Assembly: GCA_050012215.1 (NCBI GenBank)
Contig: JBEKHO010000017.1
Location: 13,888-77,887, forward strand
Direction of reading: 5' to 3'
Source: Steroidobacteraceae bacterium
Lineage (GTDB): Bacteria > Pseudomonadota > Gammaproteobacteria > Steroidobacterales > Steroidobacteraceae
Length of the DNA stretch: 64,000 bases
This document shows positions 21,095-30,352 of this stretch, piece after piece. Position numbers and translations under genes: made by a program. Numbering within the stretch: the first letter of the stretch is position 1; each line of letters opens with the position of its first letter. Below the pieces are notes generated by a model. That model ran no database searches and was not told the DNA's origin. It saw only the letters and a list, made by a program, of their open reading frames with translations.

Positions 21095-23419
21095 TCAATG
21101 CGGCGCGGGGGCCGGCTTTGCCGCCGCAGCGTGCTCGTGCGGCGCCGCTTCCGTACTGACCGGAATCTCGATATAGCTGTCGTTGTACCAGCGCACCTTG
21201 ATTGGCGTGTTGCCGTCGTCGATCGACTCCTCGCTCACGTCGTTGCCGGTGCCGTAGTTGATCTCCCGATCCGGGCGCTTGCTCACGCGCAGCACGATCA
21301 CCAGACGGCTGCCTGCCTCGAGCCGGCGGCTGGTCATGCGCTCGCCGACGAATGCCAATTTCTGCCGCTCCCCCGCTCTCAGCAGATGGCGGTGCACACG
21401 GTCGGCCGCATAACTCAAACGCAGCTCATCCGCCGGATTGAACAAGCGCACATAATCACCGGCCGCCGTCAACGCATAGGCGGCAATATCGATGTCCATA
21501 TCCATCTTGTTCACTGAAAAATCCAACCGCCCCGACAGCAGGCCATTGAAGTCCGTCGGGGTCTTGAACGAGTTGCTCACGAACGTCACGGAGTTGTGCG
21601 TGACGAGATTTCGTGTGATGAGGTCGCTCGGCGGCAGCCATGCTGCATCGCTGCGGTCCGTGAGGCTCACGGTCTGAGCGACCGCGGCGGCCTTCGCGCT
21701 CTTGCGCCTGATGAGCCGGCGTCCTTCGGCCGCGCCGGCCGCACCGGCGCTCAAATAGAATTTGAGCGATGCGTCGGCCATGGCCCGCAGCGACGACACA
21801 TGGCGCCACTCATTTGCGCCCATGATCTCGAAATTGACCCGGTCTTGGAGTTCGGCCGGGACCGCGCCGCCCTTCATTGCATGGTCGAGCCACTGATATC
21901 GCAGCTCGCGCAAATCGAGAAGCGCAGCCGCGTCCACGTCGTAGCCGCGCACCGAGGCGGACGCCCCGCGCTGCATGGCTTGATCGTCGTACGGTCCGAT
22001 GAGCAAGGTATGGTCCGCACGAGGGTTGTAGCGATGATGCTCCGTGAAATAGTAGAGCGCGGCGGGCTCTGCGGCGGCGAAATAACCGGTCATCGTGAGC
22101 ACGGGAAAGTCGACGCGGGCGAATTGACGCTGATACGGGATCATGCTCTGCCAAAACCGGTCGTAGCTCGGATGGTTCAACCAGCGGATGAAGATCGGGT
22201 TGGGCCGGCCATGGATCGTCCCCAGATCCCGATAGCGCCGTCCGCTTCGATACCATTTCTCGTCGAGCGCGCGCCAAACGGCATCGTCGCCGAAACTTGG
22301 ATCGACCTCCTCCCGGGTGTGGGTGACTTCCAGAGACCAGCGGTACCCCGAATTCTGAAAGACGCTGCCGGACATCGGCATATCGATGCCGGGCGCGGTC
22401 GGATCCGAGACTGCGATGGCCTTGAGCGCGGGCGGCATGCGCCCCGCCGCCGCCCAGGCCGTGAATCCGCTGTACCCCTCGCCGTACATCGCCACCCGCC
22501 CGTCGCTCCAGCCCTGCTTGGCGATCCAGTCGATGAGTGCCCGCGCCACCTCACCGTCGTGCTGATACGGAACGAAAGCGGCGGTTCCTGCCGCTGCGCG
22601 GCGCATGTCCGCGAACACGCCCACGTAGCCATGCGCTGCGCTCTCCTTGGCGGACACCGTAGGTCGATCGATGCCGAGCTCGAGCAGCGCGGGAAGCGCG
22701 GTGGAGGCGCCCTGCGGGCGAATCACGGTTGCGGCGATGCTGCCGCGCCCGGGCACCTTGATGCTGACCTCGCCCTCCGCATAGCGTTTCGCCTCATCCA
22801 CCGAGTTGAGCGGTCCCGCCAAAGGGGCCGATCCGCGGTAGGCCTCGAAGTACGCGTAGGCGGACAGCAGCGTCTCGGCCTCCTGCTGATTGATGATGTC
22901 CTTGGAGCGTTGCTCGTCGAGCAACCGCTGGAAATTCTCCTGAAACTCCTGGGCAGGAGCGGCGAGCCAGCCCGAGAGCATGAAGGCATCATGATCGTTG
23001 AGCTTGGAAAATACCTCTTGATACGCCATGTCGAACGCCTCGGAGAACGGCACGCGCCGTTGCGCCTCGATGGCCTTGGTGCGGACATAGATATCCAGCA
23101 CCCTGCCGCGCCCGACCGGGCGGCCCGAATCCGCGCGCCGGCGGCGCTCGTGCAGGGATTCCCGCGACTCGATCGCAGCGGAATAGTCGGCCGCCGCCAA
23201 TTGCAGCACCGATAGGTTCGCGAGATATCGATCTGGATCGGAGTCCTGATAAACGGGCAGCAGCCGCTCTGCCAGATCGCGCATGACCGCCGGCGTCTTT
23301 GCATCGACGGCCGAGAGCGGGGCGTGGAAGTCGAAGCTCTGAGCACCGCTCAACCGCGGCAACGCGACTGCGAACGCCGACACCAACACGAGACCCGCGA
23401 GGCGGCGGCCGAGCATCAT
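21095..23419 (-). CDS. secreted CocE/NonD (S15 X-Pro dipeptidyl-peptidase) fold protein with substituted catalytic triad and ~210-aa N-terminal helical extension
   Basis: Signal peptide MMLGRRLAGLVLVSAFAVALPRLSGAQS. It aligns by eye with Rhodococcus CocE around GYVGVFADMR...VAMYGEGYSGFTAWAAA...LKAIAV, TMTGYFAAA, LLIGPYDDQ and a C-terminal jelly-roll (FEIMGANEWRH). Confidence 0.8.
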   Translation of the reverse strand: MMLGRRLAGLVLVSAFAVALPRLSGAQSFDFHAPLSAVDAKTPAVMRDLAERLLPVYQDSDPDRYLANLSVLQLAAADYSAAIESRESLHERRRRADSGRPVGRGRVLDIYVRTKAIEAQRRVPFSEAFDMAYQEVFSKLNDHDAFMLSGWLAAPAQEFQENFQRLLDEQRSKDIINQQEAETLLSAYAYFEAYRGSAPLAGPLNSVDEAKRYAEGEVSIKVPGRGSIAATVIRPQGASTALPALLELGIDRPTVSAKESAAHGYVGVFADMRRAAAGTAAFVPYQHDGEVARALIDWIAKQGWSDGRVAMYGEGYSGFTAWAAAGRMPPALKAIAVSDPTAPGIDMPMSGSVFQNSGYRWSLEVTHTREEVDPSFGDDAVWRALDEKWYRSGRRYRDLGTIHGRPNPIFIRWLNHPSYDRFWQSMIPYQRQFARVDFPVLTMTGYFAAAEPAALYYFTEHHRYNPRADHTLLIGPYDDQAMQRGASASVRGYDVDAAALLDLRELRYQWLDHAMKGGAVPAELQDRVNFEIMGANEWRHVSSLRAMADASLKFYLSAGAAGAAEGRRLIRRKSAKAAAVAQTVSLTDRSDAAWLPPSDLITRNLVTHNSVTFVSNSFKTPTDFNGLLSGRLDFSVNKMDMDIDIAAYALTAAGDYVRLFNPADELRLSYAADRVHRHLLRAGERQKLAFVGERMTSRRLEAGSRLVIVLRVSKRPDREINYGTGNDVSEESIDDGNTPIKVRWYNDSYIEIPVSTEAAPHEHAAAAKPAPAPH

Positions 23420-25278
23420 CGGCGTCCCCGCGGCGTGCGCTTCCCGCCGGCGCCGGGCTGGGACGAAGCGGCTGGAACCGCCGGCGCGCGCGCCATCGCG
23501 TCGGGCCGCCCGGACTTGACGAGGTGAAGGACCGTCGAGAACAACGGGTGCGCCTCGCCCGGGCCGCCGATGTGAATGACACCCGTGTCCTTCAATTCCC
23601 CGTCGAACACGCTCGAGATGATCTCGAGCACGTCATCGTCGAGCGACCCGAACGTGCCGTCGATCAGCACCCAGGGCGGCGACTGAATCAGGATGCGCGC
23701 GAACACCAGGCACAGCTGCTCGTCCTGACTCAGCACCCGATCCCACCGATGGGTCTCATCGAGCATCAGCGCCAACCGCTCCACGCCCAGCCGGTAGAGC
23801 GCCCGCGTGTAGGAGTTGCCGCTGAAGCTCTCCGGCTTCAATGGATAGGCGAGCACCTCGCGCAGCGTGCCGCGCGGAAGATACGGCGTGCCGCGCGGCA
23901 GGTAAAAGATCTGTTCCCCGCGCGGGCGCGTGATTTCTCCGGAGCCCCACGGCCAAAGCCCCGCGAGCGCCCGGAACAACTGCGTCTTGCCGGTTCCCGG
24001 TGCGCCCAGAATGAGCACGCGTGCGCCCGCACCGATCACCGCTTGCGTCTCCTTGAGCCGGTCGGCATTGGCCTCCGAAACGATTTCCAGATTGGAGATC
24101 GCGATGACCCCGGGCTCGCCTTCCGTATAGGTGATCCGGCTTTCGAAACCTTGCGGCTCGTGCAGCGACACGAGCGCATGACGGAAGGTTGCGACGCGGA
24201 ACAACGTGGCGCGCCAATCGGCGATCGAGCTGAAGTTGTCGATGAACCAGCGGAGCGAGGACTGCGCCTGCGTGAACGCGCCGGCCGCCATCATCAAACC
24301 GCCGAACGAAATCTTGCCCATGAAGTACAGCGGCGCCGCCACCAGGATCGGAGCGACGTTCGTGATCCAGCCGAAGCCGGCGGTCACCCAGGTGAGATGG
24401 GTATGACCCCAGATGATGCGGCGGGTGGCGGCGAGCACGTCGCCCAGGTTGCGCTCCATGCGGCGCTTTTCATCCCCTTCGCCCTGTGCCAGCGCGATGG
24501 CATCCACGTGCTCGTTTGCCCGGACCAGCGAGAAGCGAAAATCCGCCTCACGCGCGTACCGCTCGGCGTTGCGATTCACCAGCCCCCGGCCCACCCAGTA
24601 GCTCATCAACGAACCGGCGCTCGCATAGATGATGGCTGCCCAGACCATGAAGCCGGGAATGGCGTAATCCTGATCTCCAATGCGGAAGCTGAATGCGCTC
24701 GACAGCCCCCACAGGACGCCTGCAAACGTGCCGAACAGGATCGACGACTGAAGCAGCCCGATTCCCAGATCGGCGGACAGCTGCGTGAGATGGCGCGCAT
24801 CTTCGTGCATCCGCTGGTCCGGGTTGACACCGATCGCTCCGGCGTTCGCCAGCCAGAATGCGCGCCGCGGCTTCATCCAATCGTCGATCAGACTGTGCAC
24901 CAATCCTTCGCGGAGCTTCAACTCGAGGGTCTCGTTGAGCCAACGCTGCACGACATTCAAGATCAGCAGGCAGCAGGCGATCAGAAAAAAAACACCGAGC
25001 TGGTAGAGAAACTCGCGCAAATCGCGTCGTGATAGAGCGTCGAAGAAGGGCTTGTTCCAGCGATTGAGGCGGATTTGGCCGTACGATGTGGCAGCCACGA
25101 TGAGCACGGTCACGATCATCAGCACCATGAGCGGCTTGCCGGCGCGTGAGGCAAAGATCGCGCGCGTCAGCATGCGGACCTGGGCCGTGAGGCCGGTCGG
25201 CGCCGTGTCGGCCTCCGAATCGGAGCGGGGGACGTTGGAAGAGCGATCAGTCACGGTGCCGGGCGCCTCGCCACACAT
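23416..25278 (-). CDS. ABC half-transporter of the SbmA/BacA/ABCD (ABC_membrane_2) type with degenerate nucleotide-binding domain
   Basis: 620 aa. The TMD begins ...LNRWNKPFFDALSRRDLREF, as in YddA/ABCD-type proteins. Walker A is GAPGTGKT. Q-loop, signature, Walker B and H-loop positions deviate (see findings). ATGA overlap with the downstream CocE-like gene. Confidence 0.8.
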   Translation of the reverse strand: MCGEAPGTVTDRSSNVPRSDSEADTAPTGLTAQVRMLTRAIFASRAGKPLMVLMIVTVLIVAATSYGQIRLNRWNKPFFDALSRRDLREFLYQLGVFFLIACCLLILNVVQRWLNETLELKLREGLVHSLIDDWMKPRRAFWLANAGAIGVNPDQRMHEDARHLTQLSADLGIGLLQSSILFGTFAGVLWGLSSAFSFRIGDQDYAIPGFMVWAAIIYASAGSLMSYWVGRGLVNRNAERYAREADFRFSLVRANEHVDAIALAQGEGDEKRRMERNLGDVLAATRRIIWGHTHLTWVTAGFGWITNVAPILVAAPLYFMGKISFGGLMMAAGAFTQAQSSLRWFIDNFSSIADWRATLFRVATFRHALVSLHEPQGFESRITYTEGEPGVIAISNLEIVSEANADRLKETQAVIGAGARVLILGAPGTGKTQLFRALAGLWPWGSGEITRPRGEQIFYLPRGTPYLPRGTLREVLAYPLKPESFSGNSYTRALYRLGVERLALMLDETHRWDRVLSQDEQLCLVFARILIQSPPWVLIDGTFGSLDDDVLEIISSVFDGELKDTGVIHIGGPGEAHPLFSTVLHLVKSGRPDAMARAPAVPAASSQPGAGGKRTPRGRR

Positions 25279-25300: not shown

Positions 25301-28288
25301 TCAGTACGCGATGCAGAGAACCTCGGCGGGAGTCGAAGGCACGGCCACCGAGTCGCCGTCGATCCGCGCCGGCGCTCCGCCGACTCTCGCCTCGCGCAGC
25401 GCAGCTGCGAGCGGTGGCTTCACGATGATCCGGCAGTCCACGCCGGAGGCAATATCGAAGCGCACCGTGCGAGCGTCGATCCGCCGCACGGTATAGCTGA
25501 GCGCGCCATAAAGTGTCGGCATCGCACGCACATGCACGCCGTCGCCCTCGATCCATTCCGGTGCCACTCCCGCCGCCAATACCAGCGCGCGGTCGGCTTC
25601 CCGCTCGTAAGCGAACAGGCTCCGAATCGCGAGAACGTACTCGGCAGAAATCCAGGTGTGCGGGAGATCGCCGACGTGCGCGGGCGCCTTGCGATCGCGC
25701 CACGCGATTTCCGGCCATTGATTCCAGGCCCGCGGACGCCTGTCGGCCAGGAAGAAGCGCAACAATTCGAGCGCCGCGCTGCGGTGCCCGAGCCGGACCA
25801 GCGCTCCGATGATGCGGATCTCGTAGGGAGTGTAGTTGGGCGAGGTTGCGTCATCGGAGCGCTTGGAGCGCCAATCCGCAAGATACTTGTCGAAGGTACG
25901 CTCGACGGCCGCTCGATCGAGACCTTGCGGTACATCCAACAGGTAAATTGCATTCGCGGTGGCCGTGGGATCGAAATCCGCCCACTCGACGCTACCGGGA
26001 ACAAAGTCGAGGTTGTGGGCCGCGCGGGTCGCCGCGACCGAGGCGAACAATCCCGTCCCCACCCGCTCGGCGAGCATCTGCGAGCGCCGCGCGAGATCAT
26101 CGGCGCGCCGGGCGTCCACACGTCCGCCATCCGCCGCGAGAATTCGAGCGAGGTCTGCCGCGTCGGTGAGGCCGCGAAGCGCCCAAAAGTCGTCCCAGTA
26201 CGAATGAACCGGCTGCGCGAGATAGCCTTCGTGGCTCACGGAAATCGGCAGCAGCCCGTCGCCTTCCAAGAGGCCGTCAATGCACTGCACCGCCTTCTGG
26301 ATGAAAGGCCACGCCTCGTCGAGAAACTGCCGATCACCGGTGAACCGGTAATAATCGGCGATCAATGCGAGAAGCTGACCGTGGCTGTCGTGCTCCACCA
26401 GCCAATCGGGGCCCTCCCGGTCCACGCAGCACGGTACGAAGCCATCGTCGCGCTGATGCGGCGCGTACCAGCGGATGAACTCGAGCACCTCGCGTGCATG
26501 TCCCATTCGAAGCAGCGCCGCGCTCATCATGGCCCCATCTCGAATCCACGAGCGCGTATATCGCCTCGGACCCGGCTGCAGCGCGGGCCCCGATCGGGTG
26601 ATCAAGATATGCGCCGTCGCAGTGAGCGCCGCGTCGATGGCCTCGCCCGCCCAACCGCTCCCCGACCACTGATCCGTGCGCATCCGCGACTTCCAGTCGA
26701 ATGCCGGCAGGCCCGCCGGGCTGGCCTGTGCGGCGGGCCGCGAGCGCAGGGTCCGATCGCAGGAGGCGCCCGGCTGCAATGCGAGGTCGAATTCGAATGC
26801 GCCCGTCGCAAAGCCGAAGTCGTCGCGTATCGACCCGGCCGTCGGCAGTGCGCCGACGCGAAGCCTCGAGGCGACGAATCCGTCGTCGAACGACAGTGCG
26901 CCGAAGCGGACGCTCCCATCGGCCCTCACGGCGAGGCTTCTGTTCACCCGCAGCACCCCCTCTTGCCATTCAAGATCGTGAACGCGGCTGACCCCGCCCA
27001 CATCGCGAAAACTTTGCCAGGGAGGCGTGACCTGGAACGGACGCACAATGACGTACAGGGCTGCCTCCAACGGCGCCCCGGTTCTGTTGTCGACGCGATA
27101 GCGCACCCGCACCTCGCCATCCTCGGCGGCTTGCGCGATCACGGTGAGGCGCCATTGTTCGGTCTCCCACAGCACCGCGGGGACGGGCACCCAGCGATCC
27201 TCGAGCGCGGGGCACGGCTCGAAATCCGCCCAGGTGAAAAGCCTCGGACCGATTCGCAACATGGGCTCGAGCGAGAACGACGCTTCGGCCACTTCCACCA
27301 TGCCATCGCTGTTCATCAGCGCGCACTCGGTTCCGTTCGATCGGCCGATCGGCGTCCATTCGCTTTGCTCGCGATGCAACCAGCGCGGATGCCAACCTCG
27401 CTCCTCGCCTTTCGCGACCGCATACCAAAACGCCTCGATGGAGCGCGAGAACTCGAACGGTTGAACGCGCAGTGTCGCACCTGCGCAAGGACTCGACAGC
27501 TCCAGGCGCAGGAATCGCGTCTTGAGGTCCGGTAGATATACGTAGCTGCGCGCACCTCCCGCCTGCGCGGCGACGTGCACGACTTCCCACCGCTTGCTGG
27601 TGTTCGATGCGCAAATTCGGAATCCCGTGGACGGCGCGCCGTCAGGCCAGTCGATGATGAGGCCGCCGATCCGGCGCGGCAGCGCGCAATCGACCACGAT
27701 CCAAGGCCGCCGATCGCCGGGATCGGGTTTCCAGCCCTGCCCGGTAAGCGCCGCATCGGCCCCAAATCCGGGCCGCTCGCTGGAAGCGCTCGCCGTCGGC
27801 GCCCGGTCCGGTGTCAAATCCTCGATCTCGAGATCCGCGATCCAGAGCGAGCCGCGGCCACCCTCACCGGCCACGATGGCGATTTCGACGAATCCCAGTT
27901 CCGTGAGCGCACTGCCGCTCGCGGGACCCCAGGCAAACTCGATCTCGCGGCTCTCGATGGTCCACCGTCGCCAGCGTGCGGGTGGACTCTGGTTTTTGGC
28001 GACGTGACGCCAAACGTTGCGGCCCGTGGCGTCGAGCAGCTTTATCTCGAGATCATTGGGCGGCCCGTGTCCGCGCACGCGCAGGTGCACGGCGTACTCG
28101 TTCGGCATGGGGCGGGGGCAGCTGCGCCTCGCGACCGCAAACCCCTTGCCGCCCTTGAAATCGAAATTGAGACGTAGCGCCGAGGTCTTTCCGGAGGGAA
28201 CGACGGACACCTCGAGGGTGGCGTTGCCGGACACGGTCGGCTGCCACGCCGACAACGGAATCGGGTCGCGCGCGCGCGCCGGCGACAT
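25301..28288 (-). CDS. large leaderless protein: N-terminal beta-sandwich + F5/8 type C (discoidin) domain + (alpha/alpha)6 glycoside-hydrolase-like (GH15-like) region
   Basis: 995 aa. Discoidin-like segment PWIVVDCALPRRIGGLIIDW...KTRFLRLEL. Later RYTRSWIRDGAMMSAALLRMG and SYWDDFWALRG resemble six-hairpin glycosidases. No signal peptide. The start overlaps the GGDEF stop by 1 nt (TGATG). Confidence 0.6.
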   Translation of the reverse strand: MSPARARDPIPLSAWQPTVSGNATLEVSVVPSGKTSALRLNFDFKGGKGFAVARRSCPRPMPNEYAVHLRVRGHGPPNDLEIKLLDATGRNVWRHVAKNQSPPARWRRWTIESREIEFAWGPASGSALTELGFVEIAIVAGEGGRGSLWIADLEIEDLTPDRAPTASASSERPGFGADAALTGQGWKPDPGDRRPWIVVDCALPRRIGGLIIDWPDGAPSTGFRICASNTSKRWEVVHVAAQAGGARSYVYLPDLKTRFLRLELSSPCAGATLRVQPFEFSRSIEAFWYAVAKGEERGWHPRWLHREQSEWTPIGRSNGTECALMNSDGMVEVAEASFSLEPMLRIGPRLFTWADFEPCPALEDRWVPVPAVLWETEQWRLTVIAQAAEDGEVRVRYRVDNRTGAPLEAALYVIVRPFQVTPPWQSFRDVGGVSRVHDLEWQEGVLRVNRSLAVRADGSVRFGALSFDDGFVASRLRVGALPTAGSIRDDFGFATGAFEFDLALQPGASCDRTLRSRPAAQASPAGLPAFDWKSRMRTDQWSGSGWAGEAIDAALTATAHILITRSGPALQPGPRRYTRSWIRDGAMMSAALLRMGHAREVLEFIRWYAPHQRDDGFVPCCVDREGPDWLVEHDSHGQLLALIADYYRFTGDRQFLDEAWPFIQKAVQCIDGLLEGDGLLPISVSHEGYLAQPVHSYWDDFWALRGLTDAADLARILAADGGRVDARRADDLARRSQMLAERVGTGLFASVAATRAAHNLDFVPGSVEWADFDPTATANAIYLLDVPQGLDRAAVERTFDKYLADWRSKRSDDATSPNYTPYEIRIIGALVRLGHRSAALELLRFFLADRRPRAWNQWPEIAWRDRKAPAHVGDLPHTWISAEYVLAIRSLFAYEREADRALVLAAGVAPEWIEGDGVHVRAMPTLYGALSYTVRRIDARTVRFDIASGVDCRIIVKPPLAAALREARVGGAPARIDGDSVAVPSTPAEVLCIAY

Positions 28289-30237
28289 CAGGCGGCGGCG
28301 CCCATGTCCACCAGCCGGACCCGCTCGTCGGCCGCGGCGGACTCGAACTCCTCGCAGATCACGGTCAAATCATCCTTGTCCTGCGCGACCACCGCACTGA
28401 TCAAGCAGGCGCGATTCCGGCCGCGGCGCTTCGCCTCGTAAAGCGCCTTGTCGGTGAGGCTGATCGCGCTGTCGAGCGAGATCTCCGTATCCGCCCCCGG
28501 CATCGGAAAGCACGCGTAGCCGATCGAAATCGTGCACCGGATGGCCTGGCCGTTCCAGAGCACCGGATCGCGGCGCACCGCCTGAAGGAGCCTCTCGACC
28601 GTCCGGTCCGCCTGTTCGGGCGTGATCGGATCGAGCACGGCCAGGAATTCCTCACCGCCCCAGCGCACCAGCTTATCGGTCTCGCGCAACGCCGCGGACA
28701 GACGGTGGCTCACGGTGGCGAGCACGGCGTCTCCGGCCGGATGTCCCAACGTATCGTTGATCCGCTTGAAATGGTCCAGATCCGCGAGCAGCACGCAACC
28801 TCCGACCGGCCGGCCGCCGTCGACGCTCAGTACGTGCTCGTTAAAATAACGGCGATTGCGCAGGCCCGTCAATGCATCGCGTTCGCTGTTGAAGCGCAGA
28901 CGATCGTTCGCGCGCCGCACGCGTGCGAACGCCCAGGCGAGCGCCGCACAGATGAAGGTCACGAAGCCCGCCGCTGCCATGATCAGTTGTTGTTTCAGCC
29001 GTTGGCCACGCATTTCCGAGGCTTTGAGTGCGTTGTCCCGCCGCAGCAGCTCGAGCTCGCGGGCGCGCCTCTCGTCGTCGAACTTGGCCGAGAGCTCGAG
29101 GAATGCGCGTTGGCGCGTGCCGGTCATGATTTTCTCGCCCACTGCATCGTATTGATGATAGGCCTGAATCGCCATCATCAGATAGCCTGCGTGTTCGAGC
29201 GCGTCGGCGTACTCGCGCAGATCCTCCTTGGCGTCGAGGAGATTGTCGCCCTTGACCGCGTTGTCTATCGAGGCTTCGGCGAGCTTCTCACCCTCCTTGA
29301 TGTTGCCGAGACCGATGTATGCCAATCCCTCGTTGAACAGCACGATGCTCTCGTCGCCGCTGCCGCGCATCTGGGACACCAATGGCAGCGACTGTTTCGA
29401 GTACTTGAGAGACTCGGCGTAGTCGCGCGTCTTGAGATAGGAATCGCCGAGATTCAGGTAGGCATGTGCGAGCCACTTGGTGCTGTCCGAGCGCGTGGCA
29501 TGCTCGAGCGCCGCAAGACTGGCGCGCCGCTCCGCCGGCCGGTCACCCTGACGGTCCGCGATGTCCGATGCGCGCACTTCCACCTCGGTCAGCGCCGCCT
29601 CATCGCCGATCGCGGACGCCAGGCGTCGCGCGCTCTCGAGCTGGTCGGACGCGCGATCGTAGTTGCCGGTATCTGTGTAGATGAGCGTGAGCCAGAGCAT
29701 CGCATGGATGCTGCGCTGATCGTCGTGCATGTCGCGGGCCAGGTCCAGGGACTCTTCGAGAAACGGCAGTGCCGCCTCAGCCTGTCCCAGGGTCCGCAAG
29801 GTATTGCCCCGAAGTATCGACACACGATAGCGCTCCGCGTCGGAGTCGATGGCCGTCATGTCGATCTGGTTGAGTTCCTCGCGAGCCGCCGCGGATTGCG
29901 CGTGCTCGTAGTGGGAATAGGCGCGCACGTAATGCTCGGCCAGAACGGCCGACTGATCCCCGTCCTCCGCGATCGCCTTCAACCGTGCAATCGTCGCATC
30001 GACATCCGCATCACGGCGGGTGTCGGCGTAGACCATCGCGCGGACCTCCAGGAACTGCACTTCGGAGGCGCGCCCTTTCGCGAGGGACGGCGAGTCGATG
30101 ATTTTCTCCGCGCGCGCGGGATCCGACCAATCGAGCATCTCGATTCGATCAGAAAAGGACAGATCTGCCGCCCCCACAGTCGTGGTGGCAGTCCATGCCA
30201 ACAGCCCCATCAAGGCCCATTTTCTAGAAAGGCGCAT
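28288..30237 (-). CDS. diguanylate cyclase with periplasmic TPR sensor region (signal peptide, TM, GGDEF)
   Basis: ATG at 30237 lies 5 nt after an AGGTGG RBS (a GTG at 30246 is also possible). TPR-like repeats, a coiled coil, one TM (LIMAAAGFVTFICAALAWAF), an active-site RWGGEEF and an I-site RETD five residues upstream. Confidence 0.85.
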   Translation of the reverse strand: MRLSRKWALMGLLAWTATTTVGAADLSFSDRIEMLDWSDPARAEKIIDSPSLAKGRASEVQFLEVRAMVYADTRRDADVDATIARLKAIAEDGDQSAVLAEHYVRAYSHYEHAQSAAAREELNQIDMTAIDSDAERYRVSILRGNTLRTLGQAEAALPFLEESLDLARDMHDDQRSIHAMLWLTLIYTDTGNYDRASDQLESARRLASAIGDEAALTEVEVRASDIADRQGDRPAERRASLAALEHATRSDSTKWLAHAYLNLGDSYLKTRDYAESLKYSKQSLPLVSQMRGSGDESIVLFNEGLAYIGLGNIKEGEKLAEASIDNAVKGDNLLDAKEDLREYADALEHAGYLMMAIQAYHQYDAVGEKIMTGTRQRAFLELSAKFDDERRARELELLRRDNALKASEMRGQRLKQQLIMAAAGFVTFICAALAWAFARVRRANDRLRFNSERDALTGLRNRRYFNEHVLSVDGGRPVGGCVLLADLDHFKRINDTLGHPAGDAVLATVSHRLSAALRETDKLVRWGGEEFLAVLDPITPEQADRTVERLLQAVRRDPVLWNGQAIRCTISIGYACFPMPGADTEISLDSAISLTDKALYEAKRRGRNRACLISAVVAQDKDDLTVICEEFESAAADERVRLVDMGAAA

Positions 30238-30352
30238 ACCCGCCACCTAGCACTGCATCGCAGCATCCTCGTATAGCCAATCTGATCATGGGGTTGTCTC
30301 AGGTGGCGTGACGGAGGTCATCTCGTGAGCTTTTGTTGGCCGAATTTGCAAG

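Follow-up and report, generated by a model that had tools for sequence, protein, structure and literature searches.

The stretch of DNA analysed here, referred to as the window, is 64,000 nt from a Steroidobacteraceae contig, and its reverse strand carries a gene for an ATP-binding cassette (ABC) half-transporter whose nucleotide-binding domain (NBD) lacks several of the residues that are canonical in this superfamily. What defines an ABC transporter is that ATP drives the dimerisation of its NBDs, and we know of no degenerate ABC site that does not lie beside one working site. The locus raises the question of what such an NBD is kept for, and of what drives the transporter that carries it. 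On balance, we think it somewhat probable that the protein is an oligosaccharide importer of the group referred to below as the ExsE clade, with an NBD that is hydrolysis-dead but under selection, a pseudo-hydrolase as partner and a source of energy other than ATP hydrolysis. Loci in other genomes are labelled L###, representatives of homologous proteins are labelled P####, and the window protein is P0001.

The degenerate nucleotide-binding domain and its conservation

The gene, its domains and the NBD motifs are as follows, with the basis of each in brackets.

23416..25278 (-), ABC half-transporter gene, most probably ExsE clade, type A; 620 aa, transmembrane domain (TMD) then NBD (open reading frame (ORF), Pfam, PDB, AlphaFold2 (AF2)/Foldseek)
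24124..25161 (-), TMD, residues ~40-385, type IV ABC exporter fold (PF06472, AF2)
23509..24123 (-), degenerate NBD, residues ~386-590 (PF00005, AF2, ratio of non-synonymous to synonymous substitution rates (dN/dS))
23983-24006 (-), Walker A GAPGTGKT, intact (translation; ortholog conservation)
23881-23901 (-), Q-loop LPRGTPY, Gln replaced by Arg, with the one-residue insertion that marks type A (alignments)
23710-23733 (-), signature LSQDEQLC (consensus LSGGEQQR), second Gly replaced by Asp (alignments)
23656-23670 (-), Walker B VLIDG, Asp kept, catalytic Glu replaced by Gly (alignments)
23635-23652 (-), D-loop FGSLDD (consensus SALDE) (alignments, orthologs)
23557-23574 (-), H-loop HIGGPG, switch His replaced by Gly (alignments)

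In a Pfam search, the window protein matched PF06472 (ABC_membrane_2) with 122.5 bits (cut-off 24.4, residues 37-317) and PF05992 (SbmA_BacA) with 81.5 bits. The match to PF00005 (ABC_tran) was weak, at 31.8 bits (cut-off 25, residues 412-540), compared with 64-69 bits in canonical relatives. No NCBIfam equivalog scored near its cut-off (TIGR00954, 110.6 against 918.9; SbmA NF008306, 49.8 against 492). The closest PDB match by sequence was Rv1819c of M. tuberculosis (6tqe, E 4e-53, HMMER), followed by plant and human ABCD transporters. The AF2 model, for which the input was an alignment of 84 clade sequences, has a mean predicted local distance difference test score (pLDDT) of 77.6, with 81-94 in the NBD and long helices predicted at residues 30-371, and its top Foldseek matches were Rv1819c, ABCD1, ABCD3 and ABCD4. 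Because the Pfam matches, the closest PDB relative and the structural matches agree, the window protein is a TMD-NBD half-transporter with the type IV fold, of the YddA/BclA/Rv1819c type. It has the TMD and the NBD fold of the type IV half-transporters (ABCD/YddA/BclA/Rv1819c) but not their consensus catalytic motifs.

The original prediction concerned 23524-24126 (-), which corresponds to residues ~385-585 of the 620-aa ORF, i.e. to the NBD. It had read an intact Walker A, an Arg in the Q-loop, a degenerate signature, and Gly in both Walker B and the H-loop, and the translation and the alignments bear this out. In the HMMER alignment to Rv1819c (6tqe), LSQDEQLC is paired with LSPGEQQR, LIDGT with FLDGS and IHIGGPG with ISVSHRP, and in that to plant ABCD1, YLPRGTPY is paired with YVPQ-RPY. 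The deposited Rv1819c chain itself reads DG at Walker B, and we take this to be E576G, a variant engineered to abolish hydrolysis. A MAFFT alignment of 101 full-length representatives (50% identity clusters), 98 rows of which were kept for the tree, was scored at seven columns, namely the Walker A Lys, Q-loop Gln, signature Ser and Gly, Walker B Asp and Glu, and H-loop His. These columns read KQSGDEH in 62 of the 98 rows and KRSDDGG in the window protein. The HMMER alignments to Rv1819c and ABCD1 and the 101-sequence MAFFT alignment concur, and they rule out that the canonical residues lie in a different register. Judged from these residues, the canonical ATPase of the window protein is very probably dead.

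Rv1819c (6TQE/6TQF) and BclA share the TMD-NBD architecture of the window protein, and both are importers of hydrophilic compounds despite their exporter fold. Rv1819c and Bradyrhizobium BclA need ATP hydrolysis (PMC12003926) and have consensus motifs, whereas the window protein natively has Gly in place of the catalytic Glu.

The substitutions are shared by nearly all members of a set of 110 near-full-length orthologs (at least 73% identity), a point that the original prediction had left to be checked. GAPGTGKT is found in 103 of the 110, and all five of the listed variants, which cover the complete set, end in GTGKT. LPRGTPY is present in 102 and LSQDEQLC in 94, the six commonest listed variants of Walker B (106 orthologs) all end in DGT, and the IGG of the H-loop is retained in nearly all. 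As the degenerate motifs are themselves conserved across the 110 orthologs, the substitutions are fixed and are not due to chance. The mean frequency of the top residue in this set is 0.861 (NBD), 0.878 (NBD core) and 0.877 (TMD); the two termini are free to vary. Pairwise dN/dS among 11 orthologs from the same genus (55 pairs) has medians of 0.116 (TMD), 0.130 (NBD) and 0.104 (NBD core). This shows that the NBD is kept by purifying selection like that on the membrane domain and, together with the AF2 model, that it still folds. The catalytically degenerate NBD would be retained to bind nucleotide or phosphate, to dimerise or to regulate. The earlier suggestion that it survives as a nucleotide-binding or regulatory appendage is consistent with this, as purifying selection fits a binding, structural or regulatory domain.

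The ExsE clade and possible partner subunits

An exhaustive HMMER search of 1.84 billion representatives recovered 1397 proteins at E < 1e-30. The tree was built from the TMD only, so that the columns of the trait under study, those of the NBD, were left out. In this tree, the window protein falls in a supported (97*) set of 13 representatives, each of which has at most three of the seven canonical residues. This set is nested in a 100* clade, the basal members of which include the fully canonical P0132 (KQSGDEH), one near-canonical and one partly degenerate protein. The degenerate clade is derived from canonical ancestors, and the degeneracy, which the original prediction had described for a single protein, is a property of the clade. 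Degenerate motifs were also seen in other YddA-like groups (P0182-P0184, P0238, P0223, P0230, P0252 and P0268), and loss of catalytic residues seems to be recurrent in the YddA-like family.

When each species was represented by a single genome, a scan for related loci gave 80. Their sources are Steroidobacteraceae, Nevskiaceae, Casimicrobiaceae, Acetobacteraceae and Methylovirgula, as well as cultured Brucella/Ochrobactrum, Sinorhizobium, Mesorhizobium and Phyllobacterium. On plasmids, further genes were found on Sinorhizobium meliloti pSymB (51% identity) and on Variovorax replicons (59-60% identity). An annotated record of S. meliloti shows the gene flanked on one side by exsH, genes for a PAS kinase and a response regulator, and a gene for a small helix-turn-helix regulator, and on the other by queE, queD, an ABC transporter gene, galE (exoB) and exoZ. 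We take this position to be that of exsE, going by the published exs cluster (exsH...exsA-exoB-exoZ order). ExsE of S. meliloti 1021 reads GDPRAGKT / IPRAPY / LGDDEQRL / VVIDEA / KIGRTP, is 51% identical to the window protein over 94% of the length, and falls with it in a 96* subset of nine rows in the TMD tree. The N-terminus of Phyllobacterium zundukense ExsE is also 51% identical to the window protein. On this evidence, the window protein can be placed in the ExsE clade with high confidence. An 'ExsE' class of SbmA/BacA-like proteins is recognised by Smith et al. (2025, PMC12003926) and, reportedly, by Guefrachi et al. (2015). We found no description of degenerate NBDs in ExsE-class proteins, and nothing relevant on degenerate NBDs in SbmA/BacA/YddA proteins or on homodimers with two degenerate sites, in a literature search that left most subscription papers out of reach.

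The clade contains two subtypes, compared below for 79 loci (33 type A, 46 type B).

Q-loop: type A, LPRGTPY with a one-residue insertion; type B, LPR-TPY
Signature: type A, LSxDEQL; type B, L[SN][ED]DEQQ
Catalytic position: type A, never Glu (G 16, D 15 and N 2 of 33); type B, Glu in 35/46
H-loop: type A, IGG or IGR; type B, IGR

Common to both types are Arg in place of the Q-loop Gln (75/79 loci), Asp in place of the signature Gly (72/79) and the Walker B Asp (79/79). The Walker A Lys has been kept at 67 of the 79 loci and is lost, for example, in Phyllobacterium (SEPGIDRT) and Brucella (GGTETQRT). Type B includes ExsE as well as a paralog from the same genome as the window protein, and no type-B protein among the loci compared has a Q-loop Gln or an H-loop His. 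ExsE, encoded in the S. meliloti pSymB exo/exs cluster, thus resembles the window protein in its Q-loop Arg, its signature Asp and the lack of the H-loop His. The window protein differs in being of type A, with the Q-loop insertion, in having also lost the catalytic Glu, and in its link to a pseudo-CocE gene, which is absent at type-B loci (0/46). The label 'long-chain fatty acid transport' attached to ExsE rests on homology (ALDP/PMP70) only; the context of the window gene is glycan-related.

In the whole 5.6-Mb assembly, a search for PF06472 and PF05992 found only the window gene and one paralog, which lies on another contig. The paralog is of type B and reads GESGRGRT / LPR-MSY / LSDSDRQS / LIIIEA / YIGRAG; neither the Lys of Walker A nor the Asp of Walker B remains. 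A heterodimer partner with consensus motifs, the presence of which would have overturned the original prediction, was not found among the PF06472/PF05992 genes of this assembly, a search that does not extend to the unrelated PF00664 exporters. Pairing with one of the latter is considered unlikely. Since the sole paralog is even more degenerate than the window protein, no dimer would have a consensus site. To judge from the residues present, both composite sites are degenerate in any dimer, be it A2 or A/B, and must lack the canonical catalytic machinery. The earlier conclusion that both sites are hydrolysis-deficient is upheld to this extent, and a dimer of two type-A subunits, or of type A and the type-B paralog, would be unable to hydrolyse ATP by the canonical mechanism. 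The same substitutions, affecting the catalytic Glu, the H-loop His and the signature, are known from heterodimeric type IV exporters such as TM287/288, TmrAB, TAP and CFTR (PMC7756269). However, exporters of the TM287/288 type always retain one consensus site that drives the cycle, and the window protein has none in either dimer.

The assumption of a homodimer, on which the original prediction relied, is less safe. All genomes of the genus that have type A also have type B (13/13), and two or three genomes have B alone. At L099:47-9964, both types are found in a single operon, in the order type-B transporter, glycoside hydrolase family 144 (GH144) beta-1,2-glucanase homolog, GH15-like protein, type-A transporter, pseudo-CocE protein and M16 peptidase. 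Of all the loci, this operon hints most plainly at cooperation between types A and B. Because of the co-occurrence and the shared operon, an A/B heterodimer is a live possibility.

The pseudo-CocE protein and the glycan gene context

Three neighbouring genes on the same strand belong to this gene string.

21095..23419 (-), secreted CocE/NonD (S15)-fold protein without the catalytic triad, overlapping the transporter stop codon by ATGA; signal peptide
25301..28288 (-), leaderless 995-aa protein, beta-sandwich/discoidin plus (alpha/alpha)6-barrel GH- or phosphorylase-like part, as predicted from PF00754 and AF2; upstream of the transporter gene
28288..30246 (-), tetratricopeptide repeat (TPR)-GGDEF diguanylate cyclase gene, at the head of the string (PF00990 128.6 bits plus TPR repeats)

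The downstream gene matches PF02129 (94.7 bits) and TIGR00976 (131.8 bits). In the HMMER alignment to cocaine esterase, the catalytic Ser is replaced by Gly, the Asp by Ala and the His by Asp. Among 29 orthologs of this partner, most lack the nucleophile Ser, and Asp or Glu stands at the position of the His in the listed majority. The partner gene is found at 30 of the 33 type-A loci, in 25 of them directly adjacent and on the same strand, and at none of the 46 type-B loci. At L082:5998-10002 (+), the transporter and the CocE-fold partner are fused in one ORF of 1335 aa with a hydrophobic joining segment (…AQPIALLLLVALAWPALSRAAAG…). This segment looks like a former signal peptide, and the fusion implies a topology in which a cytoplasmic NBD is joined through the membrane to a periplasmic CocE-fold domain. 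The 1369-aa representative P0122 probably has the same fused arrangement. The almost constant linkage to type A and the L082 fusion both argue strongly that the transporter and the CocE-fold protein act together, and it is very likely that the two are functionally coupled, with the CocE-fold domain in the periplasm.

There is a parallel in E. coli YddA with YddB/PqqL and in Pectobacterium Fus (PMC6793856), where an inner-membrane transporter of the YddA family also stands beside a periplasmic protein with a hydrolase fold. However, the ATPase motifs of YddA follow the consensus, PqqL belongs to the M16 proteases and a TonB-dependent receptor is present, whereas the partner of the window protein is a dead S15/CocE fold in a glycan-related context.

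The 995-aa protein encoded upstream has a PF00754 discoidin match, a weak match to the GH15-type TIGR01577 and no signal peptide. A sequence search of the PDB with this protein returned no match. Foldseek comparison of its AF2 model (mean pLDDT 80.7) retrieved a GH15-type dextran dextrinase, GH94 phosphorylases, including 1,2-beta-oligoglucan phosphorylase, and GH116 enzymes, and on the basis of the model the protein may represent an uncharacterised glycosidase or phosphorylase family. Its gene adjoins the transporter gene in 14 of the 33 type-A loci, those of the closest relatives. At more distant type-A loci, the pair is preceded by genes for a PF10091 protein and a GH15-like protein, and there is a divergent GH3 beta-glucosidase gene. 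The PF10091 protein of L099 matches the Chitinophaga (C. pinensis) endo-beta-1,2-glucanase (GH144, 5gzh) with E 2.5e-142, and the GH15-like protein matches glucoamylases. In three genomes, including that of the window, type-B loci also have the same divergent GH3 gene, and one of them has GH144 and GH15 genes as well. None of the GH144, GH15 and GH3 enzymes of these loci has a clear signal peptide, and they are presumably cytoplasmic.

The gene context points to transport of oligosaccharides rather than of peptides. Because glycosidases without leaders are encoded beside an inner-membrane permease and a protein of periplasmic binding type, import of an oligosaccharide is the direction that we propose, and we consider the chances of this to be even. 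In the window genome, a GH144 gene on contig C24 stands alone, in surroundings that are not informative, and a nitrogenase component 1-type oxidoreductase gene (PF00148, 394 bits; L129:368-1771) lies a few kb from it. The organism may itself be a source of the glucan to be recycled by these loci (G000:C16:65203-65826, L128).

Energy coupling and competing explanations

According to the explanation that we prefer, the CocE-fold protein without its triad is probably a periplasmic binding component, and it and the transporter would together supply the leaderless, presumably cytoplasmic, glycosidases with an imported oligosaccharide, the probable origin of which is beta-glucan or beta-1,2-glucan. 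Transport would be energised otherwise than by ATP hydrolysis. Proton-motive force is the leading candidate, as in SbmA, although we rate proton drive as less probable than not.

SbmA lacks both an NBD and coupling helices but carries an additional domain, TM0 (PMC8442886), and SbmA/BacA are proton-driven (PMC8442886, PMC13316013). The SbmA/BacA proteins (SbmA-like peptide transporters (SLiPT); PDB 7P34) have a related TMD fold and share PF05992 with the window protein, and for both the working model is one of transport that does not involve ATP hydrolysis. However, the window protein has a full NBD, whereas SbmA consists of a TMD with TM0. The original prediction saw in the window protein an intermediate between the Rv1819c type and SbmA. 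This view was not sustained, as in the TMD tree E. coli SbmA and P. zundukense BacA are both nearest to canonical YddA-like proteins, and the window protein belongs to a separate, derived clade. PF05992 scores are also lower in the ExsE clade (81 bits for the window protein, 119-135 in canonical relatives). On these two observations, a literal evolutionary intermediate is rejected.

The clade could, more tentatively, represent a second, independent conversion of an ABC transporter to a secondary (ion-gradient) importer, in this instance with the NBD retained. Salt bridges in trans between the Q-loop Arg and the signature Asp would then replace the ATP sandwich, and the pseudo-NBDs would dimerise and open without hydrolysis, perhaps tuned by nucleotide at the P-loop. 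With the CocE-fold protein as a new periplasmic binding partner, this would be an uptake system for beta-1,2-gluco-oligosaccharides made of two pseudoenzymes. We hold this extended scheme to be possible but doubtful.

A hint at function comes from P. zundukense exsE, which partly restores gentamicin sensitivity to an S. meliloti delta-bacA strain but does not restore NCR247 protection (Smith et al. 2025, PMC12003926). The first 399 residues of this ExsE, taken from the supplement of Smith et al., are 94.7% identical to L115, the NBD of which reads SEPGIDRT / MPRLPY / LSDDEQQS / VVIDEA / HIGRED, lacks the Walker A Lys and does not reach the cut-off of PF00005. If the NBD of P. zundukense ExsE resembles that of L115, this would indirectly suggest that a member without a plausible ATP site still acts as a permease.

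The clade has received very little study and is widespread, extending from soil Steroidobacteraceae to Sinorhizobium, Mesorhizobium, Brucella/Ochrobactrum and Variovorax, and combines a strongly selected NBD with the lack of a consensus site in any dimer. If our explanation is correct, a TMD of exporter fold can function without ATP hydrolysis while the NBD is still attached, and the transition from ABC to secondary transporter that has been proposed for the origin of SbmA becomes testable in tractable organisms, e.g. with S. meliloti exsE. ExsE, a protein that received its name in the 1990s but no function, would also be assigned a role. The explanation would further point to a missing inner-membrane transporter for beta-1,2-glucan oligosaccharides, and would show how a pseudo-hydrolase can be recruited to assist transport.

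Several considerations weigh against this explanation. The invariant GTGKT of the orthologs and the Walker B Asp suggest that nucleotide matters, and an ATP-dependent step is possible. The catalytic position is Glu in 35 of the 46 type-B proteins and Asp in about half of type A, so that slow, non-canonical hydrolysis is possible. The gentamicin result is indirect, as it concerns a distant ortholog whose NBD was deduced from a 95%-identical relative. The ExsE clade is no closer to SbmA than the canonical YddA-like proteins are, and the comparison with the glutamate ladder of E. coli SbmA does not discriminate; the equivalents of E193 and E276 are conserved family-wide, including in canonical YddA, those of E203 and E287 shift position between two alignments, and the position of E378 is Asp. 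The substrate is deduced from the gene neighbourhood only and, in the window, the trio of GH144, GH15 and GH3 is replaced by one uncharacterised glycosidase-like protein.

Foremost among the alternatives is a transporter driven by ATP binding, which hydrolyses ATP very slowly or not at all. Nucleotide would close the NBD dimer, which would be reset by release or slow hydrolysis, and ATP would gate or regulate transport rather than power it. The invariance of GTGKT in the 110 orthologs and of the Walker B Asp at all 79 loci would be explained in this way, as would the partly kept D-loop and the acidic residues at the catalytic position (Asp in 15 of 33 type A, Glu in 35 of 46 type B), and the degenerate sites of heterodimeric ABC exporters do bind ATP tightly (PMC7756269). 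However, the signature Asp found at 72 of the 79 loci would place a negative charge near the gamma-phosphate of the trans ATP and should disfavour an ATP sandwich. Moreover, the Walker A Lys or Gly is lost in Phyllobacterium (SEPGIDRT), in Brucella (GGTETQRT) and in the paralog from the window genome (GESGRGRT), so that parts of the clade can do without nucleotide binding. We judge ATP gating to be unlikely.

A further alternative is an obligate A/B heterodimer with a weak, asymmetric ATPase, in which type B contributes a partly competent site (Walker A and Asp-Glu). It would account for the constant presence of type B in the genomes of the genus that have type A (13/13) and for the L099 operon (B, GH144, GH15, A, S15, M16), and most type-B proteins do keep K, D and E. 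The type-B protein of the window genome nevertheless reads GESGRGRT and IIIEA, without this K and D, the signature that type A would supply in trans is LSQDEQLC, and type B is without the Q-loop Gln and the H-loop His everywhere. In addition, the rhizobial genomes sampled show, at the loci fetched, only the B-like ExsE. A dimer of this kind is quite improbable.

Loss of catalysis in both proteins would also suit a transmembrane sensor, in which the pseudo-ABC protein and the pseudo-hydrolase no longer transport but detect a periplasmic ligand and signal, e.g. to the TPR-GGDEF cyclase. A GGDEF gene is part of the gene string in the window, and a close TPR-GGDEF homolog lies beside the pair at seven other loci (L035, L039, L045, L047, L049, L051 and L058), so that the association is only partly conserved; a HAMP-GGDEF-EAL gene is also found near the type-B paralog (L040:13515-16346 (-)). 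However, most type-A loci have no GGDEF linkage, the TMD is as conserved as in transporters and keeps the family-wide motifs NPDQR, REA..R and GE.DE, and the leaderless glycosidases of the operons need an imported substrate. The permease-like effect of P. zundukense ExsE on gentamicin sensitivity (PMC12003926) also argues for transport, and the sensor is very improbable.

A decaying gene or an assembly artefact with a drifting NBD, to which the low PF00005 score of 31.8 bits might point, is ruled out by the conservation of the NBD at the level of the TMD and the dN/dS of ~0.1, and it is further contradicted by the intact ORF, the thousands of homologs, the conservation of the degenerate residues themselves and the confident AF2 fold.

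The start codon of the transporter gene is ambiguous (25254-25278). The ATG at 25278 gives MCGEAPGTVTDRSS…, and many orthologs start at the equivalent of a GTG 24 nt downstream (M/VTDRSS…), which may be the true start.

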